From: an uncultured archaeon
Lineage (GTDB): Archaea > Aenigmatarchaeota > Aenigmatarchaeia > GW2011-AR5 > JAHLMP01
Reading direction: 5' to 3'
Length of the DNA stretch: 56,487 bases
Assembly: GCA_964608845.1 (NCBI GenBank)
Contig: CAZSPP010000008.1
Coordinates: 1 to 56,487 of the forward strand
Shown: positions 1,626 to 20,123 of the stretch, one piece after another
Layout: each line of letters begins with the position of its first letter
Numbering within the stretch: the stretch's first letter is position 1
Position numbers and translations under genes: made by a program
The notes under the pieces: generated by a model
Database searches by the model: none
Told to the model about the DNA's origin: nothing
Seen by the model: only the letters and a program-made list of their open reading frames with translations

Positions 1626-1650
1626 AATATTACTTAGAAGTGATAAATTT

Positions 1651-2214: not shown

Positions 2215-2306
2215 TATTTCACCTTTGATCTACCTAAATTTATTAAATTAAAATTAATAAAGTTTTAATCCTTAAAAAATAAAATAACTCTTTTTAAGGT
2301 GGTGAA

Positions 2307-2480: not shown

Positions 2481-2490
2481 GTAGAAAAAA

Positions 2491-3210: not shown

Positions 3211-3215
3211 TAAAT

Positions 3216-3731: not shown

Positions 3732-3746
3732 TTGAGATTGAATTCT

Positions 3747-5492
3747 ATGAAAAGAATTATTGTTATAGATAAAGAACTATGCCAACCAAAAAAATGTAAT
3801 TATGCTTGTTCATATGCATGCCCAAAAAACAGATCTGGAGAAAAATGCATCATAATAAAAAAGGAAGAAGGTATATACCCAAAAATAGATGAAAATAAGT
3901 GTATTGGTTGCGGATTATGTGTAAAAAGATGTGACTTTAATGCTCTTAAGGTTATAAACCTTCCAGAAGCTTTAAAAGAAAATCCAATATTTCAATATGG
4001 TCCAAATTCTTTTAGACTTTTTCGATTACCTATACCGTTTAAAGGTGTTACAGGAATTTTGGGAGAGAATGGAACAGGAAAAACCACATCTCTAAAGCTT
4101 TTGAGCGGAGAAATAAAACCAAACCTAGGTAAAGAACTCGCTGAGAAAAAAGAAATTTTAGAAGCTTATAGAGGTACAGAGCTTCAAAACTATCTTAAAG
4201 ATTTACTCGAAGGAAAAATAAAAACAGTTTATAAAGAGCAGCAGGTAGATAAAATTCTGAATGTTTTTTCAAGCTTGGAGGAAATGGAGATAAAAGAAGA
4301 GTTTATAAGAAAATTTAATATTGAGAATAGAAAGCTTAGTGAAATGTCTGGTGGTGAGCTGCAAAAGGTTTGCATTGCATATACATTATCAAAAGAAGCT
4401 GATATATATTTTTTAGATGAACCAACAAGCTTTCTTGATATAAAAGAAAGATTGAATGTTGCTAAAATAATAAGGGAATTTAGTGAAAAGGAAGGAAAAA
4501 GTGTTATTGTTGTAGAGCACGATTTGGCTGTTTTGGATTATTTGGCTGATAGGATTCATATAATTTATGGAGAACCCGGAGCATATGGAATTGTTTCTAA
4601 GCCGTATTCAACAAAACAGGGAATAAACTCTTTTCTAAATGGTTATCTTAAAGAAGAGAACGTTAGAATAGGCGAACCAATAAAATTTGCTGAATCAGAA
4701 GATATAAGAGAGTGGAAAGAGGTTTTAATAAGGTTTAGTAACATTAAAAAATCCTTTGAAAATTTTTGTTTAGAAATAAGTCAAGGAGAAATATTTAAGA
4801 ATGAAGTTCTAGGAGTCTTTGGAGCAAACTCCTTAGGAAAAACAACATTTGCAAAAATACTCGCTGGCTTATTAGATTTTGAGGGCTATATTGAAAAGAA
4901 TATTAAAATCTCTTATAAGCCACAATATATTGCAAGTATTCAAGCTGAAATTACTGTGGAAGAATTATTTTCTTCTTTAAAAGATAGCATAAAAGATTTA
5001 AAAAAAGACGAACAATCTAAAGAAATTGAAACAATATTTGAAATTATATTGAGCAAGCTAGATATAAGAAAAATATTTCATAAGAAGATTAGCAATCTTT
5101 CTGGAGGAGAACTTCAAAGAGTAGCAATAGCTTCTTGTTTGGTTAGAGATGCAGATTTATATCTTTTGGATGAACCTTCTGCATATTTGGATGTAAAACA
5201 AAGAATGAGTTTAATAAAACTGATAAAATTCTTAAACAAAACATTCATAATAATAGATCACGATTTGACATTTCTTAGTTGCGTTTCAAATAGATGCATG
5301 CTTTTTAGAGGAGAACCTAAGAAAAAAGGGCATGCAAAGATATTCCCTCTTTATGCTGGAATTAATGAGTTTTTGAAAGAAGTAAATATTACATTCAGAA
5401 GGGATGAGGAAACAAGAAGATTAAGAGCAAATAAACCGGATTCTGTAAAAGATAGAGAGCAAAAAAGCTCAGGTATTTATTTTGAGAGGTAA
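3747..5492 (+). CDS. abce1: ABCE1 / RNase L inhibitor, ribosome recycling ATPase
   Basis: N-terminal double 4Fe-4S ferredoxin motifs (CxxxxCxxxCP, CIGCGLCVKRC). Two ABC domains with GENGTGKTT/LSGGELQ/LDEPT and GANSLGKTT/LSGGELQR/LLDEPS. Confidence 0.9.
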   Translation: MKRIIVIDKELCQPKKCNYACSYACPKNRSGEKCIIIKKEEGIYPKIDENKCIGCGLCVKRCDFNALKVINLPEALKENPIFQYGPNSFRLFRLPIPFKGVTGILGENGTGKTTSLKLLSGEIKPNLGKELAEKKEILEAYRGTELQNYLKDLLEGKIKTVYKEQQVDKILNVFSSLEEMEIKEEFIRKFNIENRKLSEMSGGELQKVCIAYTLSKEADIYFLDEPTSFLDIKERLNVAKIIREFSEKEGKSVIVVEHDLAVLDYLADRIHIIYGEPGAYGIVSKPYSTKQGINSFLNGYLKEENVRIGEPIKFAESEDIREWKEVLIRFSNIKKSFENFCLEISQGEIFKNEVLGVFGANSLGKTTFAKILAGLLDFEGYIEKNIKISYKPQYIASIQAEITVEELFSSLKDSIKDLKKDEQSKEIETIFEIILSKLDIRKIFHKKISNLSGGELQRVAIASCLVRDADLYLLDEPSAYLDVKQRMSLIKLIKFLNKTFIIIDHDLTFLSCVSNRCMLFRGEPKKKGHAKIFPLYAGINEFLKEVNITFRRDEETRRLRANKPDSVKDREQKSSGIYFER

Positions 5493-6638
5493 TTATTGTT
5501 TTATTAGTGGATGAAGAGATTTTTTGTAATGCACTCTATCTATTAATTCCTCTATCGTTGGAATTATTGTTATCTCCGTAAGCCAATCCTTGTTTTGTTC
5601 TAAATACCAATCACTTCTCGGAATTGTATCAGTTATTACAACTCTATCTATTTCAGAATTTCTCATCTTATATTCTGTTGGTTCTACAGTATATAATCTT
5701 TCTTCTTTTTTATCTTCTGCAATAATTCTATATGTTTTCGGCTCAAATCCAATATGATATATTGCTCTCTGAAGCTCTTCCTTCAAATCTTCAGGATTTT
5801 GATCAAAGGTTTCTATATATATTGTTTCTACAGGCTCTTCATTTTTATTTGCTGATCTAATCTTTTTTGAAAATAGGCCATGAGTCATTATTGCTGTAAC
5901 ACTTTTCGCTTTATTAAGTTTGCAAATGTTTGCAGCTTCAATTAATGTTCCTCCTGTATCTATTATATCATCCACTATAATACAATGCTTTCCTTCAACA
6001 TTTCCAAGAATATTTAATGCCCGAGCTTCTCCTGGAGCTGGCCGGATTTTATATATTATTGCTACATTATCTACTCCAACTTCATCAGCAAACTTTTTTG
6101 CGTATCCGGCTCTTCCAAAATCCGGAGCAACTATAACAATTTCATCTTCATTTAAACCCATCTCTTTCTTATAACTATCTAAATATTTCCTATATTCTCT
6201 CATAGGAACGAAAGAATCTATTGGACATCTAAAGGCTGCATAACTTCCTGCATTATGAATATGAAACGCTGCAACATAATCCCAATCTTCAAATACCTCT
6301 GCAATCTTTCTGACATTTATTGATGTTCTTCCTTCCGGTTTATCTGAACGCATAAATCCTAAATATGTTGGAATTGCAATTTTTCTTTCTGGTACAGAGC
6401 ATCTTAATGCATCTTCAACAAGCATAGTTTCGACCAATCTTCCTTTTGGGTCAGGATGAAATGGACATATATAAAATACATCAGCATTTCTTACACTTTT
6501 CTTAAAGTTTGGCATTATTTCTGTATCATTAAATCTAATTATTTCCAAAACACCATCTTCTAACCCAAAATCTTCACATATTTGCTTTGCTATCTTTCTT
6601 CCTGTTTTATTTGAAACTACAAATAATTCTGATCCCAT
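5493..6638 (-). CDS. prs: ribose-phosphate pyrophosphokinase (PRPP synthetase) with an internal insertion
   Basis: PRPP-binding loop CIIVDDIIDTGGT, C-terminal IDRVVITDTIP and N-terminal Prs-like domain. Confidence 0.8.
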   Translation of the reverse strand: MGSELFVVSNKTGRKIAKQICEDFGLEDGVLEIIRFNDTEIMPNFKKSVRNADVFYICPFHPDPKGRLVETMLVEDALRCSVPERKIAIPTYLGFMRSDKPEGRTSINVRKIAEVFEDWDYVAAFHIHNAGSYAAFRCPIDSFVPMREYRKYLDSYKKEMGLNEDEIVIVAPDFGRAGYAKKFADEVGVDNVAIIYKIRPAPGEARALNILGNVEGKHCIIVDDIIDTGGTLIEAANICKLNKAKSVTAIMTHGLFSKKIRSANKNEEPVETIYIETFDQNPEDLKEELQRAIYHIGFEPKTYRIIAEDKKEERLYTVEPTEYKMRNSEIDRVVITDTIPRSDWYLEQNKDWLTEITIIPTIEELIDRVHYKKSLHPLIKQ

Positions 6639-6662
6639 AATTACTATTTCAAAGTAAAGAAT

Positions 6663-7358
6663 TTAAACACAAGACTCAAGCATTTTCTTCATCTCTATTG
6701 CATTTTTAAGCATTGCATGATTGTTATTAAAGAAGACATAAACCTTCTTCGGCTTTTTCTTTAAAATCTTTTCTACAATTTCTTTTAATTCATCTTCATT
6801 ATATTCATACCTATACCAAGCTTCTCTACCATGCATTCTCAAATAAACAATTCCATTTGTATTATATATTTCTCTTGGAAGATAAGGGGCATCTACACTT
6901 ACCAAAGTCATTTTATTATTTTTACAGATTTCTATATATTTTTTGTTGAACAATTCCTTGTTTCTAAACTCTATCGCAAATTTTTCTTTCAATTTAGTCT
7001 TTTTTGCAAATTCTTGGATTTTTTTAATAGAACTTGCAGAAAGAGAAGGAGGTAGTTGAAATAGAAAAAAGTCAATATTTTCTTTTAATGAAGAAAAAAT
7101 TTCTTCAAATCTTTTCCAATCTTCAAATGAATCTTCTTCAAATTTTTTTAAATGCGTTATTATTTTATTTACCTTTATGCTCCACCTAATATCTTTACCT
7201 ATCTTTGCCCAACCTTTTATTACATTTGGAAAAGGAAATCTGTAAAAGCTCATGTTAAGCTCAATTGCATTTAGCTTAGAATTTTCTACATACCATTTTA
7301 AATTTCTTTCTTTATTCCAACTATAGGCCCAACCAGAAGTTCCGACAAAAATATCCAT
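6663..7358 (-). CDS. DUF72 (UPF0759) family protein
   Basis: MDIFVGTSGWAYSWNK... is the DUF72 signature. The track ORF's upstream 115 aa overlap the divergent gene and are low-complexity, so the start is placed at the ATG at 7358. Confidence 0.75.
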   Translation of the reverse strand: MDIFVGTSGWAYSWNKERNLKWYVENSKLNAIELNMSFYRFPFPNVIKGWAKIGKDIRWSIKVNKIITHLKKFEEDSFEDWKRFEEIFSSLKENIDFFLFQLPPSLSASSIKKIQEFAKKTKLKEKFAIEFRNKELFNKKYIEICKNNKMTLVSVDAPYLPREIYNTNGIVYLRMHGREAWYRYEYNEDELKEIVEKILKKKPKKVYVFFNNNHAMLKNAIEMKKMLESCV

Positions 7359-7398
7359 ATTTTTATTTTTGAACTTATTTATTTTAAATAATTCATAG

Positions 7399-8484
7399 GT
7401 GTTTTGTTTGGAAGATAAAACAGAAAATATAATAGAAAAAATTCTTTTGGAGAAAAAAGAAATAATAGACAAAACAATAGAAAAATATTTTCCTAGAAAA
7501 TTTTCAAGAAAGGATTTGGAATTTATGTGTGGAAGCAACATTCTTAACATTGAAGCATCTAATGAAGCTATTGCAAAGCCTATGTGGGAGTTATTGGACA
7601 GAGGAGGAAAGAGATGGAGACCTGTTTTATTTTTGTTAATAATAGAAGCGTTAGGAAAAGATCCTGAAAAGTTTGTTGATTTTTGTATAATACCTGAAAT
7701 CATTCATAACGGTACATTAATTGTGGATGATGTTGAAGATGATTCTGAATTAAGAAGAGGCAAGCCAACTATCCATAAAATTTTCGGTGAGGATATTGCA
7801 ATAAATGTAGGAAATGCGATGTATTTCTTGCCATTAATAATTTTTATTAAAAAGAAAAATGAGATTGAAAAAGATAGATTAATAAAAGCATATGAAACTT
7901 ATATCGAAGAAATGATAAAGCTTAGTTTTGGGCAAGGTAATGATATAGTTTGGCATAGAGGAATTATAAAAGATGAAAAAATAAGAGAAGAGGAATATTT
8001 GCAGATGTGTGCATATAAAACAGGGACTTTAGCGAGAATGAGCGCAAAGCTTGCAGCAATTTTAGCTGAAGCTTCAGATGAAATTATAGAAAAGATTGGA
8101 AGATTTGCTGAAAGTATTGGAATAGCATTTCAAATTCAAGATGATATCCTTGATGTGACAGCTCCAGAATCAATAGGAAAAACATTTGGAAATGATATAA
8201 AAGAAGGAAAGAGAACTTTGATGGTTATATACACATTGCAAAAAGCAAATGAAAAAGATAAGAAAAGATTGATTGAGATTTTGAATAAGCATACTGATGA
8301 TATTGAAGAAAGAAAAGAGGCAATAGAGATTCTAAAAAAATATAATTCCATTGAATATGCAAAAAACGTAGCAAGAAAAATAGTTGAAGATTCTTGGAAG
8401 GAAATTGAAAAAATAATTCCAGATAACCCAGCAAAAGAAAAATTAAGATTATTTGCAGAATATTTGATAGAGAGGAATAGATGA
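7399..8484 (+). CDS. idsA: polyprenyl (geranylgeranyl) diphosphate synthase
   Basis: First Asp-rich motif LIVDDVEDDSELRRGKPT and second motif FQIQDDILD. The GTG start is uncertain. Confidence 0.85.
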   Translation: MFCLEDKTENIIEKILLEKKEIIDKTIEKYFPRKFSRKDLEFMCGSNILNIEASNEAIAKPMWELLDRGGKRWRPVLFLLIIEALGKDPEKFVDFCIIPEIIHNGTLIVDDVEDDSELRRGKPTIHKIFGEDIAINVGNAMYFLPLIIFIKKKNEIEKDRLIKAYETYIEEMIKLSFGQGNDIVWHRGIIKDEKIREEEYLQMCAYKTGTLARMSAKLAAILAEASDEIIEKIGRFAESIGIAFQIQDDILDVTAPESIGKTFGNDIKEGKRTLMVIYTLQKANEKDKKRLIEILNKHTDDIEERKEAIEILKKYNSIEYAKNVARKIVEDSWKEIEKIIPDNPAKEKLRLFAEYLIERNR

Positions 8485-8609
8485 TTTAAAATATAACACA
8501 AACATAAAATTCAAAAAGGCATTAGAAAATATTTTTAACTTAAAATATTCTGCATTCTAAAGTATGAAATTTTAACTAAAGTTAATCTTAAAACTTTGAC
8601 TTAACAAAA

Positions 8610-8725
8610 TGGGTCTGCCCGGATTTGAACCGGGGTCTGAACCTTTTTCTCCTTTTGCAAAATTTTAAAATTTTTTAAAAATTGACCCGAAGGTCCGATG
8701 CTAGACCAAGCTACACCACAGACCC
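8610..8725 (-). tRNA. tRNA-Pro(CGG) with a 41-nt intron after position 37
   Basis: Hand-folded. Acceptor GGGTCTG/CAGACCC plus A73, anticodon stem GGACC/GGTTC, loop TT-CGG-G, intron 8645-8685, T-arm CCCGG-TTCAAAT-CCGGG. No encoded CCA. Confidence 0.8.
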
Positions 8726-8727
8726 AG

Positions 8728-8744
8728 ACAAGCCCCGGACGAGA
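8728..8744. repeat. attR: 17-bp direct repeat ACAAGCCCCGGACGAGA, a displaced copy of the tRNA-Thr 3' end
   Basis: Identical 17-mer at 15219-15235, where it forms the 3' T-stem strand, acceptor strand and trailer of tRNA-Thr. Confidence 0.85.
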
Positions 8745-8746
8745 AT

Positions 8747-8765
8747 GTTTAACTTCTATAATGCC
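8747..8765. repeat. element-terminal inverted repeat, left copy (GTTTAACTTCTATAATGCC)
   Basis: Its reverse complement matches 15202-15220 at 18 of 19 positions, with a perfect 15-mer core (8751-8765 versus 15202-15216). Confidence 0.8.
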
Positions 8766-9115
8766 TACCCGCTTTATAAATTTTATAAATATTATTAAAT
8801 ATATATAAAATAGCAAATATTTAAATCTTTTCAGATATTATCTTTTGTCAAATTACTACGCATTGTGTTGTTGATTTTATTTATTATCTTATTGTTATAC
8901 CCTAAACTCTTACCCCCTAAATCATAACACAAATTACATTTGAAATTATAATATTTTTTATGCTACATCCAAAATCACTAAAACACACTTGAGTGTTTTG
9001 ACCTTTTAAGATAATATATTTTGCAAAAGTACTTAAGAAATAATTGGTAAAGAAAACTTGTTTTTGTATTAATTGTATTATATTTTTTTAATATTTATGA
9101 ACAATAAATAATTTT

Positions 9116-10084
9116 ATGAACACTTTTAGAAATTCGAATTATAATATAAATCTTTTGTCTTTTATTGGGCTTATTATATGTTTGATCTCACTCTTTCTTC
9201 CATTATTTAGTTTGATAGCTTCTCTGGTAGAACCTCAAATTAAGTCTACATTATTGTCTTCTTTTCAAAGAGAATTATCAAGGGTTCAAGAACTTGGTTT
9301 CTTAAATTATTTCATTACGTCGCACTACGTTTCGATATCCATACTCGTTTTTCCGATAATTGGTTTTGTGCTCATCATCATAGGACTATTCACTAGAAAA
9401 TGGCTGGCTTTTACTGGATCTTTGTTTTTGACTCTTTTATCATTGACAATTCTTTACTTTCTTTCATATGGGATAAACATAGGCAGCTCTTCATATACTC
9501 TTATTTATTTTTCTGGAATTGGGTTGTGGGGCTTTTTGATAGGTTCACTTCTATTAGTTTATACTTTCGGAAAAGAAATGCATAGATCCGAAATACTTTA
9601 CTCATTAATAATTGTTTGTATTGTTAGTGGAATACTTTTTTCCAAATTTCCAATTTTTTCTCAAGTAAAAATAGAACAACAGCAAAACGATTCTCTTCAA
9701 TACGAAAAAGTAAAATCTGTTATCGAAGAAAGAATAAAAAATTACTCATCAAAATTCCCATGGACTAAAGTAGATAATTTGAAATATTTCGGTGTATTTG
9801 AAGGTAAATTCGATGGTTATGAGATTTGTGCACTCGGCAACTATGTTTGTGATTATGGAAAAGAAAGAGGGGAAAATATTAACTACATTTACTGTAAACC
9901 TTACGATGAGTATTTTAATCCCTATATTTTCTGTTTTAAAAAAATAATTGTATCATCATCTGGAGAAATTCAAGATGTTATAAAAAAATGCGTCTATAAT
10001 TTTGCTTTCGACCCAAAAAAATTAGAAGTAGTCTCGATAAAGATAGGACAAATGGAGAAAGAACCACCAATATCTAATTGTTGA
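9116..10084 (+). CDS. element cargo: polytopic membrane protein with a Cys-containing C-terminal domain
   Basis: 322-aa ORF with about five hydrophobic segments, then a soluble part with several Cys. No family recognised. Confidence 0.5.
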   Translation: MNTFRNSNYNINLLSFIGLIICLISLFLPLFSLIASLVEPQIKSTLLSSFQRELSRVQELGFLNYFITSHYVSISILVFPIIGFVLIIIGLFTRKWLAFTGSLFLTLLSLTILYFLSYGINIGSSSYTLIYFSGIGLWGFLIGSLLLVYTFGKEMHRSEILYSLIIVCIVSGILFSKFPIFSQVKIEQQQNDSLQYEKVKSVIEERIKNYSSKFPWTKVDNLKYFGVFEGKFDGYEICALGNYVCDYGKERGENINYIYCKPYDEYFNPYIFCFKKIIVSSSGEIQDVIKKCVYNFAFDPKKLEVVSIKIGQMEKEPPISNC

Positions 10085-10308
10085 TTCGAGACGAGTTTCA
10101 TAATATTTTTTGTGGAGTGGAATATTAAAAAATATCTTCCAAAAAGTCATTGTACAGAAACTTTGAAAACATACTTATTTATAGAATTTTAAAGTTCAAA
10201 ACAATCCATAATGATAAAATTAATTTGGAAAACAATACACTTAATCCATTTGTATAAAAAATAGCCATTTTTTATATACTTTTAAATCTTTGTTTTTTAA
10301 TTAAAATT

Positions 10309-11886
10309 ATGTCTAAACTAAAAATTCTGAAATTTTTATTAATGCCACTTATTCTTTCCTCTTTTGTATTTGCACAACCTCAACAAACTTGTCAGATTGC
10401 AATACCAAGGTATGGGGTAATAATGTGTCAATCAACAAGCAGTTACGAATATCCTACAGTTACCTTTTCTTGCAGTGGAAATTCTTGCACCGCAAGTTTT
10501 ACTTGTATTTCAAACTGCCAAATAACAAGTGTCAATGACATTAAAGTCGAGTGCGATCAGTTACAGGCTGCTGTTTGGAAAATTTATAAGAACGGAGAAT
10601 TAGTTACAGAAAAGGGGGTTTGGGGTGGAGGAAATTTTCCGATTACTTTTGACCGTGGAGATACAATAAGGATCGAAGCACAGTGTACAAGAATTTTAGC
10701 TAATTATCCTGTAAAGCCTACATCAAAAGTAGTAATCCAACAATTACTTATAATGCTTTATGAAGGATGGGCAGGAACTTTACCAACTTCTCCAATCTCT
10801 GGAACAGAGGGTTGTAGCATTCAGAAAATTAGAGACAAATACGTCTCGCAACCTAATGTGCAATCTTATATGGATCCTCGAACAAATAGTATAAGAGTAA
10901 AGCCAGATGCAACTTATTCAAGTCTTGACTATGTACCAACAAACTGGCGTGTAGGAGAAACTTACGTCTTTGTTAAGGACTGGGAAACCGGGATAGCCGA
11001 TATTTCATTAACATATGATAAACAAAATAATGCATATTGGTGTGGTGGTAGTTTCGGAAATAGAAAAATTTATGAGGTAAATTATGTTACAAGCCCAACT
11101 GGTACTTGTTATGCTATACCAACCCGCGTATTAAAAGATAATCTTCAATGTTGTTTTCCTTCAGATTGTCTTGCTTTAGATCCTTCTGGAAGGCTTACAT
11201 GCAATCCAGATACATGGAGATGTGAAGAGACAAAACCATGTAATTCCGATATAGACTGTCAACAAACATTTGGTTATCCAACATGTTTAAATAAACAGAT
11301 AACGAGTTGGCGTTGCGATACTACAAAAAAATGGGGAAGCTATTCTGGTACATGTGTAAAACAGGTAAGAAGTGTTTCGCAGTGTCCAAACGAATGTACA
11401 GCAAACGAATATTATAATGAGGATCAGGGAAAATGTTTACCAAGAATTACTTTATTAGAGTGTCCGGTCGGTAAGTGTTGTGAAGCTGGCGGAAATTATA
11501 AACCCAGAAGTTGTCCTAATGGATTACAATGTTGTCATACTGGAGATCCAATAATAGGAGAATGTAAACAAAGTTGTACTGAACAAAGACAAGAAACTCG
11601 TCAAATTGGAGGATGGCAAACTACTACAGGAAATCAGCCAATAACTGGACAATTTGTTCTATATAATAATCCGGTTGTGATTGTAATTTTAATTTTGGTC
11701 ATTATTGCTAGTTGTATCGGCTGTTACTTTTTATTTTGGAAAAAAGGTGGAGTTTCATTAACAAAAAAAGTTAAACCGGAAGAAAAAATAAAAACAAAAA
11801 ATAAGGTGAAATATTGCACAGAATGTGGTGCTAAACAAGATATAAATAACAAGTATTGCACAAAATGTGGAAATAAATTAAATTAA
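10309..11886 (+). CDS. element cargo: secreted Cys-rich protein with a C-terminal TM anchor and cytoplasmic zinc ribbon
   Basis: Signal peptide MSKLKILKFLLMPLILSSFVFAQP, a very Cys-rich ectodomain, the TM VVIVILILVIIASCIGCYFLFW, then KYCTECGAKQDINNKYCTKCGNKL. Confidence 0.6.
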   Translation: MSKLKILKFLLMPLILSSFVFAQPQQTCQIAIPRYGVIMCQSTSSYEYPTVTFSCSGNSCTASFTCISNCQITSVNDIKVECDQLQAAVWKIYKNGELVTEKGVWGGGNFPITFDRGDTIRIEAQCTRILANYPVKPTSKVVIQQLLIMLYEGWAGTLPTSPISGTEGCSIQKIRDKYVSQPNVQSYMDPRTNSIRVKPDATYSSLDYVPTNWRVGETYVFVKDWETGIADISLTYDKQNNAYWCGGSFGNRKIYEVNYVTSPTGTCYAIPTRVLKDNLQCCFPSDCLALDPSGRLTCNPDTWRCEETKPCNSDIDCQQTFGYPTCLNKQITSWRCDTTKKWGSYSGTCVKQVRSVSQCPNECTANEYYNEDQGKCLPRITLLECPVGKCCEAGGNYKPRSCPNGLQCCHTGDPIIGECKQSCTEQRQETRQIGGWQTTTGNQPITGQFVLYNNPVVIVILILVIIASCIGCYFLFWKKGGVSLTKKVKPEEKIKTKNKVKYCTECGAKQDINNKYCTKCGNKLN

Positions 11887-11900
11887 GATAGGGGAAAATA

Positions 11901-12365
11901 ATGAACACAGGTTTAGTTATTTTCGGAATAATTATAATCGGCGGAATGTTTTTCTTAGCAAATATCTATATAACTCCACAACAAAAGCAGCAACTTGAAT
12001 TAGTAAGTTCAGCTTGTAACTTTAATATTTTTGGTATTCCTATCGGACAAATTGGTCAATCAATAAGTTCTGATATTGCACAAAAATGTGAAGAGGTTAG
12101 GATTGTAAAGCAAATACTCTCGTTTGAACCTTTTGCTTATCTCTTAGGATTTATTCTTTTTGTTATAGGATTAGTAATCGGTGGGAGAAAAGAAGTTCAT
12201 ATAATAAAGGAATTTGTGAAAGAACCTGAAGAAGAGTTGGAAGAAGGAGTAGAAGAAAAATCGATAAAATCAAATAAAAAGGTATATAAATTCTGTTCAA
12301 ATTGTGGAAATAAAATTAATCCAGGAGAAAAGTTCTGTGGAAAATGTGGTAATAAGCTTGAGTAA
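11901..12365 (+). CDS. element cargo: small two-TM protein with a C-terminal zinc ribbon
   Basis: Two hydrophobic helices, an acidic linker, then FCSNCGNKINPGEKFCGKCGNKLE. The start lies 14 nt after the previous stop. Confidence 0.55.
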   Translation: MNTGLVIFGIIIIGGMFFLANIYITPQQKQQLELVSSACNFNIFGIPIGQIGQSISSDIAQKCEEVRIVKQILSFEPFAYLLGFILFVIGLVIGGRKEVHIIKEFVKEPEEELEEGVEEKSIKSNKKVYKFCSNCGNKINPGEKFCGKCGNKLE

Positions 12366-12520
12366 AAAACACAACTTCTTTCGGTTTTTATTTATATTTA
12401 TTTTTATTATTAAAGAAACAAATCTCCGTTATAGGTACCTAAAAATATTTCATAATAATAAGCATTGAAAAATAAGAACTTTCGCCAAACTTTAGAATAA
12501 AGTTAGTAGATTTTGGACAG

Positions 12521-13111
12521 ATGTTGGGTTTTATGTTTAAAGGGATAAAACTCGTTGTGGGAGAAATTACAAAACTGGAGGATTTGTTTTTCGGAATCGT
12601 TAAGTTGGATGTAAACCTCGAAGAGATTAAAAAGATTCACATAAAAGAAGGAGATATTGTCGAAATTCTTGGAAAGAAAAGCACAGGAGCTATAGTAGCA
12701 AACGCTTATCCTGAAGATAGGAACATCCCTTTGATTAGAATGGACAAATTAGTAATGAAAAATTGTGGTGCATCTGTTGGTGAGTATGTTGAAATTCGAA
12801 AAATTAAAGTGAAAAACGCAAAGATCATAACATTGGAACCCGAACGTGAAGATATACTGGTAGTTGGTGGTGGAGATCTGCTAAGAAAATTTCTTTTAGG
12901 AAGGCCTCTTAAAACTGGAGACATTATAAAGCCAATTAAAATTGATAAAAAGGATAAAGAGTTTGATGTATTTCGAGAATTCTTTGGAAGAGATTTCGAA
13001 TCGCTTTCATTTCCGTTGATAGATGAAAAATTCATAGTTGTTTCTACACAACCCGAAGGCATCGTTCGAGTTACAGATAATACATTGGTAAGGGTAGTGA
13101 TTAAGCTATGA
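12521..13111 (+). CDS. element cargo: stand-alone CDC48/VAT N-terminal domain protein (no AAA+ modules)
   Basis: IRMDKLVMKNCGASVGEYVEIRKIKVKNAKIITLEP parallels the VAT-N segment IRIDSVMRNNCGASIGDKVKVRKV. At 196 aa it covers both N-subdomains only. Confidence 0.7.
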   Translation: MLGFMFKGIKLVVGEITKLEDLFFGIVKLDVNLEEIKKIHIKEGDIVEILGKKSTGAIVANAYPEDRNIPLIRMDKLVMKNCGASVGEYVEIRKIKVKNAKIITLEPEREDILVVGGGDLLRKFLLGRPLKTGDIIKPIKIDKKDKEFDVFREFFGRDFESLSFPLIDEKFIVVSTQPEGIVRVTDNTLVRVVIKL

Positions 13112-13234
13112 AGTATTGAACACAACATTGAATAAAGCAAAAGCAATTTTCAACTTATTGATTTAGCAAATTTTTATAAATTTATCCACAACTTTAGCTC
13201 AAGAATTCTTTATTAGATCGTAAATAAGAGAAAA

Positions 13235-13810
13235 TTATATTTTAGCTTTTCTTATAAAACTCTTAATTATTTTACTGAAATTCTTAAATATTCTATATCC
13301 AACATATGCAATTATAATAAGAGCAATATAATTTTGTGGTGAAGTTAAATCTAATGCAACACCTTTCATTAAGAAAAGTAAACCCGAAAAGGTAAGTAAA
13401 GCTATAGTAAGATATCTTTCAAATTTTGTTTCTGAGGGGTCACTCATATTTAATTTTCCCTTAAAATAAAATTTCTTTTCGTATCCATAAGGATAAAGCC
13501 AACTAACTCCAGTAACAGTAAAAGAATCTGCAATAAGATGTGTCAACATACCAAGCACGATAGAAATAAATACTAATAAACTTCGTGTTAAATAAAATCC
13601 TATAAGTGAAACTATTAGGACAAACCATATATTATGGCCAAATGTTCTGTGCCGATTACCCATACCCCATTTAAATTGCATAGCCCAATCTATATCAGGA
13701 ATAAACGCAGCAAATCCCATCAAAAGAATAAGATTAGCACCAAATCCAAAAAAGTAGTACATTAAAGAACCGATAAATAAGCCAAAAGCAATATGGGTTT
13801 CAAGCTTCAT
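13235..13810 (-). CDS. element cargo: DUF457/YdjM-type membrane-bound metal-dependent hydrolase
   Basis: MKLETHIAFGLFIG..., HRTFGHN and THLIADSF motifs, with multiple TM segments. Confidence 0.65.
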   Translation of the reverse strand: MKLETHIAFGLFIGSLMYYFFGFGANLILLMGFAAFIPDIDWAMQFKWGMGNRHRTFGHNIWFVLIVSLIGFYLTRSLLVFISIVLGMLTHLIADSFTVTGVSWLYPYGYEKKFYFKGKLNMSDPSETKFERYLTIALLTFSGLLFLMKGVALDLTSPQNYIALIIIAYVGYRIFKNFSKIIKSFIRKAKI

Positions 13811-13843
13811 ATATATTTATTTGGTTTAAATTAAATATATTCT

Positions 13844-14704
13844 TTATCTCCATTTACCTTTCTCGTTTCTAATGATCTCAGAACTTCTCAATTCTCCAGA
13901 TTCAACATATCTTGTTGTTGTTTGAATTGAATTGTGAGCTAGAAACTCCTTCAACATAACCAAATCCTTATATCTTTTGTATAGTTCTTTAGCCCCACTT
14001 GTCCTCACCCAGTGAAAGCTTATCCCATATTCGCCCAAGAATCTTCTGCTCTCAATTTTCAATTCCTTCCAAAGCCTATAATAGCACTCCCACCAAGTTT
14101 CCCATCTGCCTTTAACTATTTTTCTAAAAACATAATCATTTTGATTCTTATCCTTTATGAAACTTTCAAGAAGGTTTGCTGTGATAGGATCCAAATATCT
14201 CTTTGCAATTTTACCCCTTTTCTCTTTACCTATAATGTATGTTCCGTCCTTGTCCTTCTTTATCATTTTAATTTTAAGATTGATTATAGGAGATATTCTC
14301 ATTCCCGTGTCATATAGGATCATCATTATCAATTTCAACTCATCATTAAAATGCTCAATCATGTCCTTGAATGTTTGAAAGTCAATGTATCTTTCATATC
14401 TTCTTTCTTGTGGTCTTAGATAAGTCCTTAACTTATCAATCTCCTTTATCCAATCCTCTTTTTTCAAGAACATGAGGAATTTCTTAATCGCAAATCTTCT
14501 ATTGTATACTATTCTATCCCCCTTTCTTGACAGCAAGTATTTTTTCAAATTTTCCAATTCTATCTCTTCATAAGTATCCAGAAACTTCTTGACCTGCAGA
14601 ACATATTGATTGATTGAGTTTTGTTTCATTGCTGTGTTTTCTCTGAGCCATTTCATAAAATCATTGAGAATGATATCTCTTCTCAACTCTTCCATAAGAG
14701 GCAC
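13844..14704 (-). CDS. int: tyrosine recombinase / integrase
   Basis: Catalytic residues in TGMRISP (R), HWVRTSGA (HxxR) and LAHNSIQTTTRYV (H...Y). An N-terminal SAM-like core-binding domain is present. The GTG start at 14704 or the ATG at 14695 is possible. Confidence 0.85.
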   Translation of the reverse strand: MPLMEELRRDIILNDFMKWLRENTAMKQNSINQYVLQVKKFLDTYEEIELENLKKYLLSRKGDRIVYNRRFAIKKFLMFLKKEDWIKEIDKLRTYLRPQERRYERYIDFQTFKDMIEHFNDELKLIMMILYDTGMRISPIINLKIKMIKKDKDGTYIIGKEKRGKIAKRYLDPITANLLESFIKDKNQNDYVFRKIVKGRWETWWECYYRLWKELKIESRRFLGEYGISFHWVRTSGAKELYKRYKDLVMLKEFLAHNSIQTTTRYVESGELRSSEIIRNEKGKWR

Positions 14705-14758
14705 CTTAAGGTAATTGATTTAATCCTTGATTGTTACAAAGGTCGTTGGAAAGATGGT

Positions 14759-15160
14759 TTAGTAAACATAGTAGTTTGCTGTGGGATTTTTTGCTTTTAT
14801 CCATTTAACAATGTCAGGATATTCTCCTTCCAAGCTTCCGTAAAATAGCCATCTATAAAAGAATTTGGTAATTGTCCTAAAATCATATTTGCTCCATTCA
14901 GAATAATTTGGATTTCTTTCAACATTTAATAAAAATCTTTCTATATCCTCTTTTTTTGCATCTTTAAAACAAACGCCCATCAGTCTATGTATTCTTCTCA
15001 AAATGCTCCAATATTTCAAAATCCTTCCTATTGCATATTTGTTTAATGTTAATGCTTTTTCAAAATTTTCCACAACTTTAAAACATTCTTCACACTCTTC
15101 TCTAAATTTTTGCTTTTGCCTTAATATCCCTTCTTCTCTATTATACAAATCTTTAACCAT
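14759..15160 (-). CDS. integrase N-terminal (SAM-like) domain protein, a possible accessory or remnant
   Basis: 133 aa. ...DIERFLLNVERNPNYSEWSKYDFRTITKFFYRWL...VKWIK resembles archaeal integrase N-domains. It is in the same frame as int but separated from it by two TAA codons. Confidence 0.4.
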   Translation of the reverse strand: MVKDLYNREEGILRQKQKFREECEECFKVVENFEKALTLNKYAIGRILKYWSILRRIHRLMGVCFKDAKKEDIERFLLNVERNPNYSEWSKYDFRTITKFFYRWLFYGSLEGEYPDIVKWIKAKNPTANYYVY

Positions 15161-15190
15161 AATTAATTCAACTTATAGCTTGCTTATAAA

Positions 15191-15200
15191 CCCACGTGGG
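15191..15200. repeat. perfect 10-bp palindrome CCCACGTGGG just inside the element's right end
   Basis: Self-complementary and GC-rich in an AT-rich context, located between the start of the 133-aa ORF and the terminal inverted repeat. Confidence 0.6.
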
Positions 15201-15201
15201 G

Positions 15202-15220
15202 GGCATTATAGAAGTTGAAC
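15202..15220. repeat. element-terminal inverted repeat, right copy (GGCATTATAGAAGTTGAAC)
   Basis: Reverse complement of 8747-8765 with one mismatch. Confidence 0.8.
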
Positions 15221-15235
15221 AAGCCCCGGACGAGA
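15219..15235. repeat. attL: 17-bp direct repeat ACAAGCCCCGGACGAGA within the tRNA-Thr 3' end
   Basis: Identical to 8728-8744. Confidence 0.85.
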
Positions 15236-15306
15236 TTTTCGCTAAAATTCGAACTCGTGACCTTTTGCTTACCATGCAAACGCTCTACCAGCTGAGCTAC
15301 CGGGGC
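15222..15306 (-). tRNA. tRNA-Thr(GGU) with a 12-nt insertion in the T-loop
   Basis: Hand-folded. GCCCCGG-TA-GCTC-AGCTGGTA-GAGC-G-TTTGC-AT-GGT-AA-GCAAA-AGGTC-ACGAG-TTCGAATTTTAGCGAAAAT-CTCGT-CCGGGGC-T. It is 73 nt once the 12 extra nt are removed. Confidence 0.85.
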
Positions 15307-15383
15307 TTCTTTATTTTATTTTTTAATAAAGAACAAATAAATTTTTATTTTGATATTTAAAGTTGTTTAGAAAAGATAAAAAT

Positions 15384-16397
15384 ATGGGAAGAAAGGCAAG
15401 TGCGATAGCAAATTCAAATATTGCATTAGTAAAATATTGGGGTAAAAGAGATGAAGAATTAATTCTACCATATAATAGCAGTATAAGTGTAACATTAGAT
15501 AATTTATTTACTCACACCACAGTTGAATTCAGCAAATATTTTTTTGAAGATAAGGTTTTTATTAATGGAAAAGAGATAGAAAAAGGCACGAGCGAGTATG
15601 AAGAATATATAGGAAGATTTCTTAGAAAATTAAGAGAATTATATCCAGATAAAATAAATGGCATGAAAGCAAAGATCGTTTCAAACAACAACTTTCCTAC
15701 AGCTGCAGGATTAGCTTCTTCAGCATCAGGGTTTGCTGCATTGGCTTTAGCTTGTAACGAAGCTTTGGATTTAAATTTGAGTAAAAAGAAGTTAAGCATT
15801 CTTGCAAGATTAGGATCTGGTTCTGCATGTAGATCTATATATGGTGGATTTGTAGAATGGAAAAAAGGAAATAAAAAAGATGGTAGTGATTCTTTTGCAC
15901 ATCAAATAGCACCTCAAAAACATTGGCCAGATTTTAGGATTATTGTTTGTGTTACAAGTATAAAAGAAAAAAAGATTAAAAGCAGGGTAGGAATGAAGCA
16001 AACTGTCAAAACATCACCTTTTTATAAAGCTTGGTTAGAAACGGTTGAAAATGATTTGAAAGATGTTAAAAGAGGTATACTGAAAAAAGATTTTTCTTTG
16101 GTAGGAAATGTTGCTGAATTAAATTGTCTTAAAATGCATGCTACAATGCTAACAACTAAGCCACCAATAATATATTGGAATGAAGAAACAATTAGTTTAA
16201 TAAATGCTGTTATGAGCTTAAGAGAAGAAGGAAAAGAATGTTATTTCACAATTGATGCTGGACCTCAAGTTAAAGTTTTGTGTTTAGAAAGAAATGTAAA
16301 TGTTATAGCAAAAAGATTAAAATGGGCTTTTGAAGGAAAACTTATAATATCAAAACCAGGAGGAGATGCTATACTCACAGAAAAACATTTATTTTAA
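15384..16397 (+). CDS. mvaD: diphosphomevalonate decarboxylase
   Basis: NIALVKYWGKRDE, NFPTAAGLASSASGFAALA, RLGSGSACRSIYGGFVEW and YFTIDAGPQVKVL closely parallel bacterial and eukaryotic MVD. Confidence 0.88.
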   Translation: MGRKASAIANSNIALVKYWGKRDEELILPYNSSISVTLDNLFTHTTVEFSKYFFEDKVFINGKEIEKGTSEYEEYIGRFLRKLRELYPDKINGMKAKIVSNNNFPTAAGLASSASGFAALALACNEALDLNLSKKKLSILARLGSGSACRSIYGGFVEWKKGNKKDGSDSFAHQIAPQKHWPDFRIIVCVTSIKEKKIKSRVGMKQTVKTSPFYKAWLETVENDLKDVKRGILKKDFSLVGNVAELNCLKMHATMLTTKPPIIYWNEETISLINAVMSLREEGKECYFTIDAGPQVKVLCLERNVNVIAKRLKWAFEGKLIISKPGGDAILTEKHLF

Positions 16398-16417
16398 TTT
16401 TGAATGGTATCGATTAA

Positions 16418-17509
16418 ATGATAATTTCAGCTCCCGGAAAGATTTTTTTAGCAGGAGAGTGGGCAATATTAGAGTTAGGAAGCCCAGGAATAGTTGCCGC
16501 TATTGATAAAAGAGTTTTTGTTGAAATTGAAAAATCAGAAAAATTCTTATTCACTTTCAAAGATAAGAAAATAAAAAATTTAGAGGCAATTTTTAACGGA
16601 AATGAGCTCATTTTTTCTAAATTAACAGAAGAAGAAAAAGAATATATAAAATTTGTTAAAAGTGCTGTGGAAATCACATTGAAATACTTAGGTACCAAAC
16701 AACCATTAAAAATAAAAACTTGGAGTAAGGGTATAAGAAAAAATGAAATTAAGATAGGATTCGGGTCTTCTGCTGCTATTAGCGTTGCTGTGGTAGCAGG
16801 AATTCTTAAAATAAATGGGTATGATATAAGAAAAGAAAAAACAAAAGAGATTATTTATAAATTATCAACAATTTCACACTTTTTTGCTCAGAAAAAACTT
16901 GGCTCGGGTTTTGATATTGCTGCATCAACATATGGAGGAATTATTTTATATTATAGATTTGATTCAGATTGGCTAATCAAGAAAATTGAAAGTTTTGGAA
17001 TAAGAGAAGCAGTAAATGAAAATTGGCCTTATCTTAAAGTAGAAAAACTGAAAATTCCAAAAGGGTTTAATCTTATTGTCGGATGGACTGGAAAGGAAGC
17101 AAAAACAAGTGAATTAATAAAAAAGATGAATGATTGGAAAAGAGGTAATAAAGAAATTTATGATAAAATTATGAATAACATAAAAGAAAATGTTGAAAAT
17201 CTTATTACCGCATGGAAGAAATCTAACAGAAAAAAGATAATAGAGCTTTTAAGAAAAAACGAGGAATATTTAAGAGATCTGACAGAAAAATCAGGAATAG
17301 AAATAGAAACAGAAAAATTAAGAATTCTTTCAGAAATAGCAAATTCTTATAATGCTGCAGGAAAGCTTAGTGGAGCAGGAGGAGGGGATTGCGGAATAGC
17401 AATATCCTTTAATAAAAAAATAGCAGAAAAAATAAAAAAAGAATGGAAAAAGAATGGAATTATTCCTTTAAATGTAAAGATTGATAAAAAAGGAGTTTGC
17501 GAATTTTGA
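16418..17509 (+). CDS. mvaK2: phosphomevalonate kinase (ERG8/MvaK2 type GHMP kinase)
   Basis: SAPGKIFLAGEWAILE, GFGSSAA, LIVGWTGKEA and SGAGGGDCGIAISF match bacterial MvaK2. Confidence 0.85.
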   Translation: MIISAPGKIFLAGEWAILELGSPGIVAAIDKRVFVEIEKSEKFLFTFKDKKIKNLEAIFNGNELIFSKLTEEEKEYIKFVKSAVEITLKYLGTKQPLKIKTWSKGIRKNEIKIGFGSSAAISVAVVAGILKINGYDIRKEKTKEIIYKLSTISHFFAQKKLGSGFDIAASTYGGIILYYRFDSDWLIKKIESFGIREAVNENWPYLKVEKLKIPKGFNLIVGWTGKEAKTSELIKKMNDWKRGNKEIYDKIMNNIKENVENLITAWKKSNRKKIIELLRKNEEYLRDLTEKSGIEIETEKLRILSEIANSYNAAGKLSGAGGGDCGIAISFNKKIAEKIKKEWKKNGIIPLNVKIDKKGVCEF

Positions 17510-17525
17510 AAATTTTCTATTAAAA

Positions 17526-18251
17526 TTATAGCTCAATGAAAAATACAACAGGATCCTTTTCTCCGTTTATTCTTGTTTCTATAACTGATATCCAACCATC
17601 ATAAAATGGCCCGGGATTTATTAAATGTGTTTTATCTCTTGATAAAGGATATACAGATCCATTTTTAGGTTCATATATTTCTATTCCTTGAGAATTTTGA
17701 CAAACATAAGTAGGAGAATGATCATGACCTCTAATCATTAGTTTGTAACCCCGCCTTTCCATTACTCTAAAATTTTTTTGATAATCTTCTTCTGTTTTTA
17801 GCCTTCCGAATAAATTAAATAAACACTGATCTCCTGAGCAATCTGGAAGATCTGATAAATCTCCTCTATATGCTCCATGCATTATTACTGCAGGATATCT
17901 TGTTTTAAATCTTTCTTTGTCAATAAAAATTCCAGTTCTATAACCATTGGGTGTAACTAAATTATCGAGATATTCTTTTGCAATCTTGTCATTCATCCAT
18001 TCATTATAAATTTTAGAATTTTTTTGGTTAGTAAAAATCCTATAATCCTCATCTCCAGGTACTTTAATACTCTCTTTCCCTTTTCTACGAAATTCTCTTT
18101 CTATAGGTATGAATTGATGAACCGTTGCTCTACTACCAAAATCACCTAAGCATATGATGGTGTCAGGATTTATATCTTCTAGATATCTTCTTAATTCTTT
18201 TAGAGATGCTCCGTGAAAGTCTCCAACTATTACGTATCTCATTTTTATCAA
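17526..18251 (-). CDS. calcineurin-like metallophosphoesterase
   Basis: VIVGDFHG, CLGDFGS and IRGHDH motifs. Confidence 0.7.
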   Translation of the reverse strand: MIKMRYVIVGDFHGASLKELRRYLEDINPDTIICLGDFGSRATVHQFIPIEREFRRKGKESIKVPGDEDYRIFTNQKNSKIYNEWMNDKIAKEYLDNLVTPNGYRTGIFIDKERFKTRYPAVIMHGAYRGDLSDLPDCSGDQCLFNLFGRLKTEEDYQKNFRVMERRGYKLMIRGHDHSPTYVCQNSQGIEIYEPKNGSVYPLSRDKTHLINPGPFYDGWISVIETRINGEKDPVVFFIEL

Positions 18252-18548
18252 TTTCAGTACAAACTTAGTTTGTCACTTTTCTTCAATGAAAAATTTATTT
18301 TTGTTTTTAAATATATTTAAATCTTACTGCTAAACAAACGAGTGAGCAAGATGGCAAAAATTACCAAGACGTTAAAAATTTCTTTGGATTAATAATTGGT
18401 TCTTTTATCCTATCTTAGGTTTAGGAATAGGATTAATGGCTCACTATTTTGGTGCAATTAAATGGATAGAAGAACTCAAAAAAGCTGAAGCATAATATAT
18501 AGCAAAAGAGAAAAAGAAAAGATAAATATAAAGCAAATTAACCAAAAA

Positions 18549-18761
18549 TCATTTCCAACCCTTTATTTCTAATGCAAGCTCTATGTCCTTTTCTTTTATC
18601 GTATTTCTTTCTGCATGTGATGCTATTTTTTGTGCTGTTATAGCAATTTCCATCGCATATTCTTCTAATATTTCTTTAAGCTCCTCTAAAGCATCTTTTG
18701 AAATCCTTTTAATCCCAGCCTTTTTTGCAATCTTTTCACATGCAAGTAATGAAATACTCAT
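18549..18761 (-). CDS. archaeal histone (HMf family)
   Basis: 70 aa from the ATG at 18761. ...IAKKAGIKRISKDALEELKEILEEYAMEIAITAQKIASHAERNTIKEKDIELAL has the histone-fold pattern. Confidence 0.85.
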   Translation of the reverse strand: MSISLLACEKIAKKAGIKRISKDALEELKEILEEYAMEIAITAQKIASHAERNTIKEKDIELALEIKGWK

Positions 18762-19904: not shown

Positions 19905-20123
19905 AATATTTTTCAAGGCAAAAACACTTCAAATACAAACACTTTCTATTGGTTTTGAAAGTGATGAATTTGAAGATGATTTAAAAGAATGATTGCAAAC
20001 TTTGGCAAAAAATATTTTAGTTAGAATAAAAAAATTAAATAATTTAGCAGCAAAAAACCTATTTCTAAATTTGATTTTCTCAATTTGAATTTCTTATTCT
20101 TTTCTGAACATTTTTTATTTAGT

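Follow-up and report, generated by a model that had tools for sequence, protein, structure and literature searches.

A base-precise 6.5-kb insertion at an intron-containing tRNA-Thr(GGU) gene of a DPANN archaeon, probably a cryptic integrative element

Introduction

In the genome of an uncultured archaeon assigned to the Aenigmatarchaeota (GenBank assembly GCA_964608845.1, contig CAZSPP010000008.1; the whole stretch of 56,487 bp was analysed and is called the window below), a tRNA-Thr and a tRNA-Pro gene are held apart by about 6.5 kb of DNA bounded by a short exact repeat. This locus raises the question of whether the intervening segment is an inserted mobile element, by what machinery it may have entered the tRNA gene, and to what kind of element, viral or otherwise, it belongs. 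A preliminary description, made from the letters of the sequence alone, had proposed an integrated element with resolvable attachment (att) sites. Here we report that the segment is a precise insertion, and we judge it to be, with high probability, a 6,491-bp cryptic integrative element of a DPANN archaeon of low guanine-plus-cytosine (GC) content, integrated at tRNA-Thr(GGU) by site-specific recombination of the tyrosine-recombinase type.

Results

Empty sites and precision of the insertion

The two ends of the segment share the 17-mer ACAAGCCCCGGACGAGA, which has exact copies at these two positions (Table 1) and nowhere else in the window, even when up to three mismatches are allowed; two matches were obtained in 0 of 100 dinucleotide-preserving shuffles, and the terminal repeat described earlier is thereby upheld. 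We scanned metagenome contigs with a pattern made of the 5′ end of tRNA-Pro, the 2-nt spacer and the 17-mer, which would fit an occupied attL as well as an empty attB. Two contigs matched, L016 and L017, and both turned out to be empty sites with a single 17-mer. Each of them has an intact tRNA-Thr(GGU) with tRNA-Pro(CGG) beginning 5 nt behind it, which is the arrangement that the preliminary description had expected of an unoccupied locus; beyond the 17-mer come TTTTCGCTAAAATTCGAAC..., the intron and the remainder of tRNA-Thr, and then a decarboxylase gene, as in the window. A contig scan with the flanking decarboxylase itself yielded only a 58 % identical locus from Hodarchaeota, which has no tRNA pair and is uninformative with regard to the empty site.

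In blastn comparisons, L017 is 99.77 % identical to positions 1-8744 of the window and 99.92 % identical to positions 15219-17698, and its two flank alignments share exactly the 17-mer as their overlap, while L016, which is also empty, shows 98 % identity to both flanks. The empty sites and the 17-mer overlap indicate that the att assignments are correct and that the insertion is precise: relative to near-identical genomes, the window holds a base-precise, site-specific insertion of 6,491 bp. The insertion, or else its excision in the relatives, is recent. A “decayed” provirus, which the preliminary description had kept among its options, is unlikely, since the flanks are 99.8-99.9 % identical to those of an empty-site genome.

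Table 1. Features of the inserted segment and of the adjoining host tRNA genes, in coordinates of the window
Feature	Position	Strand	Description
tRNA-Pro(CGG)	8610-8725	-	Host gene with a 41-nt canonical (37/38) intron; Rfam 39.4 bits
attL core	8728-8744		Orphan tRNA-Thr 3′ exon (14 nt) plus TGT; exact 17-mer, contiguous with the host flank in L017 and L016
Left inverted arm TGTTTAACTTCTATAATGCC	8746-8765		Element side of attL; missing from the empty sites
AT-rich non-coding element end	8766-9115		No open reading frame, no significant internal repeats
ORF1	9116-10084	+	322 aa; polytopic membrane protein with about 5-6 predicted helices and a Cys-containing C-terminal domain; orphan
ORF2	10309-11886	+	525 aa; signal peptide, all-beta Cys-rich ectodomain of about 400 aa, transmembrane segment 455-477, cytoplasmic zinc ribbon
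ORF3	11901-12365	+	154 aa; small membrane protein, zinc ribbon on the cytoplasmic side (Pfam); conserved partner of ORF2
ORF4	12521-13111	+	196 aa; stand-alone CDC48/VAT N-terminal domain (double-psi barrel and beta-clam), no ATPase
ORF5	13235-13810	-	191 aa; YdjM-family membrane-bound metal-dependent hydrolase; PF04307 E 1.1e-19; PHROGs “hydrolase”
Int	13844-14704	-	Small Xer-like tyrosine recombinase, 286 aa from GTG 14704; PF00589
ORF7	14759-15160	-	133 aa; N-terminal SAM-like core-binding domain only; between Int and attR
Putative ORF7-Int promoter	15184-15200	-	TATA box TTTATAA (15184-15190), centred about 27 nt upstream of ATG 15160
Right inverted arm GGCATTATAGAAGTTGAACA	15202-15221		Element side of attR; 3-nt overlap with the core
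attR core	15219-15235		3′ exon of the functional tRNA-Thr (15222-15235) plus TGT (15219-15221)
tRNA-Thr(GGU)	15222-15306	-	Intact host gene, integration target (attB); ARAGORN on the spliced sequence, partial Rfam match

Composition and genomic setting

The segment is compositionally foreign by its tetranucleotides and its CGN arginine codons. No other 6.5-kb stretch of the 56 kb lies as far out in tetranucleotide usage (distance 0.23, against a median of 0.12), and CGN codons make up 12 of its 80 arginine codons as compared with 13 of 338 in 16 host genes, a fourfold enrichment (Fisher p = 7e-4). The codon bias noted earlier thus stands, but the GC contrast had been overstated: GC content is 0.307 in the element and 0.287 in the rest of the window, and only ORF2 and ORF4 taken alone reach about 0.35, so that “mid to upper 30s” does not describe the cargo as a whole.

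The small difference in mean GC content and the metagenomic origin of the assembly are what could be said for a reading without any mobile element, in which the repeats would be chance or common ones and the 6.5 kb would be ordinary chromosome or an assembly chimera. We regard this as practically out of the question: the repeats are unique and unmatched in the shuffles, the segment stands out in composition and has an integrase gene inside it, and the reading is already refuted by two independent contigs from which precisely the DNA between the repeats is missing and in which one 17-mer remains.

The remainder of the window encodes the archaeal informational proteins S3Ae, aIF2-alpha, RLI, TFB, Hel308, STT3, a topoisomerase and SMC, and its TFB is 63 % identical to a homologue from an Aenigmatarchaeota metagenome-assembled genome (MAG). 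At 20085-21533 (+) a single 482-aa protein unites the small-subunit (PriS/Prim-Pol) and large-subunit (PriL) primase domains, a fusion that is typical of DPANN archaea. The primase fusion, the TFB identity and the taxa of the named ORF2 homologues (see below) together point to a DPANN host, which is probably an aenigmatarchaeon. A second strain-variable spot was seen to the right of the mevalonate-pathway genes (window 17503-18559, L016 4138-7287), where the window has a metallophosphoesterase; in L016 the spot is taken up by about 3.1 kb of DNA, in which one gene encodes a 311-aa protein weakly matching Cys-loop ligand-gated channel domains.

The target tRNA gene and its intron

ARAGORN and Rfam scans at the gathering threshold reported zero tRNAs in the window, a false negative that is due to introns. 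The tRNA-Thr gene carries a 12-nt insert, TTTTAGCGAAAA, at 15236-15247 on the minus strand, in the T-loop at about position 59/60; once these 12 nt are excised in silico, ARAGORN recognises a perfect tRNA-Thr(ggt), in line with the earlier view of 15219-15235 as the 3′ terminus of an intact tRNA-Thr gene, and an Rfam scan by E-value gives a partial tRNA match at 15241-15300 (-) with 27.6 bits. For tRNA-Pro, the Rfam match shows a 45-nt insertion in the anticodon loop, and excision of 41 nt yields tRNA-Pro(cgg) in ARAGORN. The T-loop intron is found in both empty sites as well, which indicates that it is native to the host and was not brought in by the element.

The 17-mer consists of the 14-nt 3′ exon of tRNA-Thr and of 3 nt (TGT) beyond the gene, and the block of identity between the repeats stops within 1 nt of the exon-intron junction. 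The copy at attL is the original host 3′ exon, left beside tRNA-Pro.

A few observations concern the tRNA genes themselves. A distant relative (L003, 17490-17598) has a tRNA-Thr(GGU) with an insert of about 33 nt at the same T-loop position, and T-loop introns in tRNA-Thr(GGU) may perhaps be widespread in these lineages. The tRNA-Pro(CGG) intron is longer and largely different in L016 (1720-1855, compared with window 8610-8725), with exons and flanks about 98 % identical, which looks like turnover between close strains. The 5-nt spacing in the empty site suggests that the tRNA pair is probably co-transcribed; the insertion places 6.5 kb between the two genes, and a TATA-like ATTATAG within the left arm, some 33 nt upstream of tRNA-Pro, is a candidate substitute promoter that might serve this gene.

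Structure of the att sites

Immediately inside the repeats lie two inverted arms: GGCATTATAGAAGTTGAAC spans 15202-15220, and a sequence that agrees with its reverse complement at all but one position spans 8747-8765. A repeat search lengthens the arms to 20 nt with 95 % complementarity (8746-8765 and 15202-15221), and both are unique in the window, so the inverted 19-mers of the preliminary description are confirmed. The sites can accordingly be written as CCACAGACCCAG-core-TTTTCGCTAAAATTCGAAC for attB, host-core-ATGTTTAACTTCTATAATGCC for attL and GGCATTATAGAAGTTGA-core-host for attR, from which attP is deduced to be GGCATTATAGAAGTTGA-ACAAGCCCCGGACGAGA-ATGTTTAACTTCTATAATGCC; the empty-site alignments bear out all four sites as proposed earlier. 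A degenerate third copy of the arm at 15166-15180 was not significant. A scan of IMG/VR with the arm motif gave no real match; its single match (L032) lies within a coding region and was rejected as a chance occurrence. The AT-rich end between the left arm and ORF1 presumably carries the promoter that drives ORF1-ORF4; accessory recombination sites may be located there too.

The integrase

The segment carries seven open reading frames (ORFs). Int is a complete two-domain tyrosine recombinase (PF00589, E 8.5e-17), in which R136, H231-x-x-R234 (HWVR), H257 and Y266 are invariant across 16 family members, and the claim that a complete recombinase sits at the tRNA-proximal end is borne out. The gene is intact and lies about 500 bp from the att core; translation more likely starts at ATG 14695 (283 aa), which has a putative GGTG Shine-Dalgarno sequence 7 nt upstream, than at the GTG given in Table 1. 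A search of 5.8 billion proteins returned a family of 18 homologues with 41-66 % identity, whereas no relatives were found in IMG/VR and identity to the recombinases of deposited phages and plasmids does not exceed 28 %. Among characterised proteins the archaeal XerA resolvases are nearest to Int: the closest solved structure is Pyrococcus abyssi XerA (4a8e, E 7e-19), and XerA_Arch (NF040815) is the best-matching NCBIfam model, although this match amounts to 79.8 bits as opposed to a cutoff of 220 bits. Int is not the XerA of the host, because its score falls short of this cutoff, its gene is located within the insertion, and the isogenic empty-site contigs lack it.

Homologues of the small Int are found alongside integrases of 409-431 aa in L001, L003, L006 and L008, and a family of tyrosine integrases of about 400-460 aa with a C-terminal zinc ribbon recurs 6-10 kb from such homologues (loci L001, L003, L006, L008 and, beside an ORF2 homologue, L020). 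An 8.4-kb contig with a 53 % identical Int homologue, L024, encodes at 6148-6771 (equivalent to L025 6133-6756) a 207-aa HAP2-GCS1-like protein, which exceeds the gathering cutoff of the Pfam HAP2-GCS1 profile (36.7 bits, E 2.5e-9, profile positions 370-494) and whose precomputed annotation also includes Fsx1; the gene is thus a short one resembling a fusexin domain, on a contig that is putatively a DPANN mobile element.

ORF7, a second integrase-derived gene

Between the integrase gene and the att site, where the preliminary description had correctly recognised a complete recombinase but missed a further gene, lies ORF7, which matches Phage_int_SAM_4 (E 7e-8). A HMMER search of 1.84 billion representatives returned 456 relatives, and ORF7 aligns to residues ~2-125 of integrases of about 390-445 aa which bear a C-terminal zinc ribbon. 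It ends right past the VKWIK motif, at the point where the catalytic domain begins in the full-length relatives, and no trace of the catalytic domain of a large integrase could be seen. ORF7 starts at an ATG of its own, closely preceded by an in-frame stop, 58 nt inward of the core, and reads inward without overlapping the core; on these grounds it was rejected as an Int(N) fragment of the SSV type. It is separated from int by 55 nt, with a Shine-Dalgarno sequence before int, and the two genes probably form an operon. The TTTATAA box would be the putative archaeal promoter of this unit, and a perfect 10-bp palindrome, CCCACGTGGG, at 15191-15200, between the right arm and the TATA box, is a candidate operator. 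ORF7 may be a DNA-binding accessory protein or the remnant of an integrase replacement.

Large integrases of the ORF7 type occur in L008, near a homologue of the small Int, and in L020, where one of 458 aa lies immediately upstream of an ORF2 homologue. Such neighbourhoods bring up the idea that the segment is a satellite, or a defective derivative, of a larger DPANN element or virus, which would rely for its integration, excision and spread on a helper supplying a full-length large integrase together with replication or packaging functions; ORF7 would then be the remnant of, or an adaptor for, the helper integrase, and the small Int would act mainly as a multimer resolvase. The identity of ORF7 as the N-domain of the ~400-aa integrases, ending at a domain boundary, its att-proximal position, which is usual for an integrase gene, the presence of the 409-431-aa integrases together with the small Int in four of the related loci, the ORF2 homologue adjoining an ORF7-type integrase in L020, and the lack of replication genes in the element all speak for it. 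On the other hand, the element itself encodes a complete integrase whose catalytic residues are conserved, no helper is present within the 56-kb window, the compact layout of ORF7 and Int resembles a stable operon rather than recent decay, and the insertion is recent. On balance we consider a satellite unlikely, if the alternative deserving of most attention, and continue to favour an element integrated by its own Int.

Cargo genes

ORF1 has zero matches in Pfam, PHROGs, NCBIfam and PADLOC and no relative in IMG/VR; it is alone in its own 90 % identity cluster, and, like ORF4, is found on this contig only. An AlphaFold2 model built from the single sequence (predicted local distance difference test, pLDDT, of 47) is unusable. 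ORF4 matches Pfam CDC48_N (E 1.2e-15) and CDC48_2 (E 1.7e-7), and covers positions 3-159 of the 733 of TIGR01243 only. Copies of ORF5 with at least 90 % identity are present on two further contigs, both very short and derived from other data sets, so the element, or part of it, exists in other samples.

ORF2, which matches Zn_Ribbon_1 in Pfam, has 45 full-length homologues with 37-70 % identity, in which the cysteines of the ectodomain are conserved; the named ones come from Aenigmatarchaeota and Micrarchaeia MAGs, and there are none in IMG/VR. Its AlphaFold model, based on a 30-sequence alignment, reaches a pLDDT of 81.4, and yet it has no PDB match at E <= 1e-3 and shows only a partial jelly-roll resemblance (CBM35 or C1q-like) in PDB and BFVD. 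ORF2 is best described as a putative lineage-specific surface protein, paired with ORF3, and it is possibly carbohydrate-binding. Two more specific assignments were rejected. The idea of a fusexin, or class II fusogen, which was prompted by the HAP2-GCS1-like protein on L024, is contradicted by the lack of any Pfam Fsx1 or HAP2 match and by a confident model that matches no class II fold; a known viral spike is likewise contradicted by the lack of a fold match in BFVD or PDB.

A homologue of ORF2 is followed by one of ORF3 in L018, L021 and L022. In L020 the gene after the ORF2 homologue is small and shows no detectable similarity to ORF3, and in L030 a zinc-ribbon gene precedes the ORF2 homologue. 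The surroundings of the pair vary: in L021 it lies amid ordinary chromosomal genes (ribosomal proteins, NFACT), in L022 a YdjM gene is located immediately upstream, and the ORF2 homologue of L030 is in a variable region with toxin-antitoxin and SIR2-STAND genes. Within the element, the zinc-ribbon CxxC knuckles of ORF2 (11809-11876) and ORF3 (12288-12355) comprise four 26-nt copies with 77-100 % identity to the reference copy, and this similarity at the DNA level suggests a common origin of the two cytoplasmic tails. As far as the predictions go, the cargo would be mainly envelope-related, comprising ORF1, the ORF2-ORF3 pair and the YdjM hydrolase, to which the CDC48 N-domain protein is added.

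A cargo of this kind could also belong to the provirus of a novel membrane-vesicle virus that has no capsid or is pleomorphic in the manner of pleolipoviruses, in which ORF1-ORF3 would make up the envelope and ORF2 would be a spike with a C-terminal transmembrane anchor. ORF2 does have the layout of pleolipovirus spikes (signal peptide, ectodomain of about 400 aa and C-terminal transmembrane segment), ORF1 and ORF3 are small or polytopic membrane proteins, 6.5 kb is near the sizes of small pleomorphic or filamentous viruses, a HAP2-like domain protein is encoded on an Int-homologue contig, and pleolipovirus-like proviruses are present in another DPANN group (bioRxiv 10.1101/2025.02.15.638363). 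This picture is at odds with the searches aimed at viruses, every one of which was negative, and with the genomic setting of the pair: ORF1-ORF4 have no PHROGs match beyond the zinc ribbon, ORF2 has no viral spike or fusogen fold match in BFVD or PDB, no AAA+/NTPase or other pleolipovirus core gene is present, the Int and ORF2 families are absent from IMG/VR, and the ORF2-ORF3 pair also occurs amid chromosomal genes in L021. We regard a virus of this type as very unlikely.

Hallmark genes and class of the element

No domains of replication, partition, conjugation, packaging, capsid or defence proteins were found with Pfam, PHROGs, NCBIfam and PADLOC; in particular, none of the seven ORFs contains a domain of a replication initiator (Rep, primase-helicase or MCM) in Pfam or NCBIfam. 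The matches in PHROGs are limited to integrase and hydrolase families and one weak zinc ribbon of unknown function. These profile searches, with the fold search for ORF2, agree with the preliminary description, which had recognised no replication, packaging or capsid gene. A scan for sigma-70 promoters and terminators showed no enrichment and is irrelevant for an archaeon.

With an integrase and att sites present and no signature genes found, the element has the make-up of the cryptic integrated elements (CIEs) of Thaumarchaeota, which were defined as having an integrase and att sites without viral, conjugative, casposon or insertion sequence (IS) signature genes (Krupovic et al. 2019, PMC6563490). 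The best classification is as a cryptic integrated element of a DPANN archaeon, which may be a satellite.

Discussion

How the element would integrate

We propose that the element circularises to a 6,491-bp form carrying attP, and that attP would recombine with the 3′ end of tRNA-Thr(GGU), with strand exchange occurring inside the shared 17 bp, so as to restore tRNA-Thr at attR and leave the displaced 3′ exon orphaned at attL. The catalyst would most likely be the element's own small Xer-like Int, presumably expressed in an operon with ORF7 from the promoter beside attR, and the 20-bp arms would be the probable protein-binding sites that define attP. As the promoter of ORF7-int is next to the right arm, arm occupancy could feed back on expression. 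In view of the missing replication module, the element would be either an integrated passenger with a transient circular stage, or dependent on a helper.

Several observations weigh against this scheme. The arms are separated by about 15 bp, an unusual spacing for core sites, so a classical arrangement in which both would be core sites next to a 6-8-bp overlap cannot apply. The role of core-type sites C and C′, put forward for them in the preliminary description, is putative: the arms do lie inside each copy of the repeat, but their spacing is too wide, and they may instead be extended or accessory sites for the N-domain of Int or for ORF7. Around nine related integrase loci nothing convincing was found in the way of tRNA-derived direct repeats or attP-like palindromes, and L001, which holds the closest relative of Int, has no tRNA adjoining its integrase; since the homologous loci checked have no tRNA-derived repeat nearby, targeting of a tRNA by this family is seen at the present locus only. 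The homologues of the small Int often lie in the middle of larger ORFan regions which also hold an integrase of about 400 aa, and in these relatives the small Int might be a resolvase instead of an integrase. ORF7, for its part, indicates that a second integrase family was once present, or is still acting, at the att-proximal position. In addition, the predicted attP 34-mer is absent from IMG/VR, none of the contigs retrieved has the terminal overlap of a circular form, and a second integrated copy was not found.

Implications

DPANN mobile elements are barely charted, and very few of them have base-resolved att sites together with an empty-site control. The clean attB, attL and attR, the deduced attP and a candidate integrase might seed genetic tools for DPANN archaea. 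At this locus, moreover, integration has occurred in nature into a tRNA gene interrupted by a non-canonical T-loop intron, with a core that ends at the exon-intron junction, and ORF7 and Int could be a case of integrase-module replacement or of a two-part recombinase. The presence of a conserved DPANN surface-protein cassette, ORF2-ORF3, on a mobile element matters in that DPANN archaea live attached to their hosts.

These features can be joined into a more far-reaching picture, which we offer as speculation and consider decidedly unlikely when taken as a whole: a so far unseen DPANN-specific agent (be it a minimal virus, an element carried by vesicles, or a satellite), with ORF1, ORF2 and ORF3 as its sole “structural” genes and ORF2 as a disulfide-rich spike of new fold, would use a two-component recombination module, consisting of the Xer-like Int and a borrowed N-domain protein, and an att homology that has shrunk to the 14-nt 3′ exon. 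If true, it would offer a case from nature that is relevant to the long-standing notion that introns in tRNA genes restrict the integration of mobile elements.

Comparison with known systems

The element is of an ordinary kind, a tRNA-targeting element with an integrase, and it extends a known class to an under-sampled host group without overturning anything. It resembles the thaumarchaeotal CIEs in having an integrase, short direct repeats at a tRNA gene, a small size (the CIE range being 2.6-98 kb) and a cargo of ORFans and membrane proteins, and differs from them in its DPANN host, in the Xer-like, 18-homologue family to which the integrase belongs, in the additional integrase-like gene consisting of the N-domain only, and in an att core that is confined to the 3′ exon of a tRNA whose T-loop is interrupted by an intron (PMC6563490). 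With pNOB8-type integration it shares an int gene that stays intact, an attP beside the gene and a target at the 3′ end of a tRNA, that is, the lambda-like paradigm, but pNOB8-type integrases have the motif R...YxxR...Y and about 440 aa, whereas Int has HxxR and 283-286 aa (PMC8371274). The hhalign probability between Int and the pNOB8 integrase is an insignificant 16 %, and the element has no conjugation or partition genes. The XerA chromosome-dimer resolvases of P. abyssi (4a8e) and T. acidophilum (5hxy) agree with Int in length, in the SAM-like and catalytic domains, in the HxxR motif and in the inverted arms at the recombination site; they act, however, at a dif site with 6-bp spacing, as opposed to the tRNA 3′ end with arms about 15 bp apart seen here.

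In SSV-type (“suicidal”) integration attP is located inside int, and the gene is split upon integration into Int(N) and Int(C). The satellite pSSVi, of about 6 kb, has an integrase, no capsid genes, a tRNA target and possible helper dependence, and in all these respects (a ~6-kb integrase-bearing element with a tRNA target, no capsid genes and a possible need for a helper) the present element is similar to the SSV and pSSVi systems. An assignment of Int to the SSV type (class I) was nevertheless rejected: int is unsplit, the att site lies outside the gene, the hhalign probability with the SSV1 integrase is 11 %, and the motif is HWVR and not the KxxR of SSV-type integrases (PMC8371274). The SNJ2-type module of temperate pleolipoviruses likewise pairs a tyrosine integrase with a small additional gene, laid out much like an operon, and goes with a tRNA target and membrane proteins (PMC5861418), but the SNJ2 family is restricted to Halobacteria (PMC8371274), and no pleolipovirus core genes were detected in the present element. 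Finally, in Caldiarchaeum a mobile element has been linked to heterogeneity at an intron-containing tRNA-Thr(GGU) locus (PMC3293823); compared with that locus, the element described here is a cleaner case of the use of a 3′ exon only.

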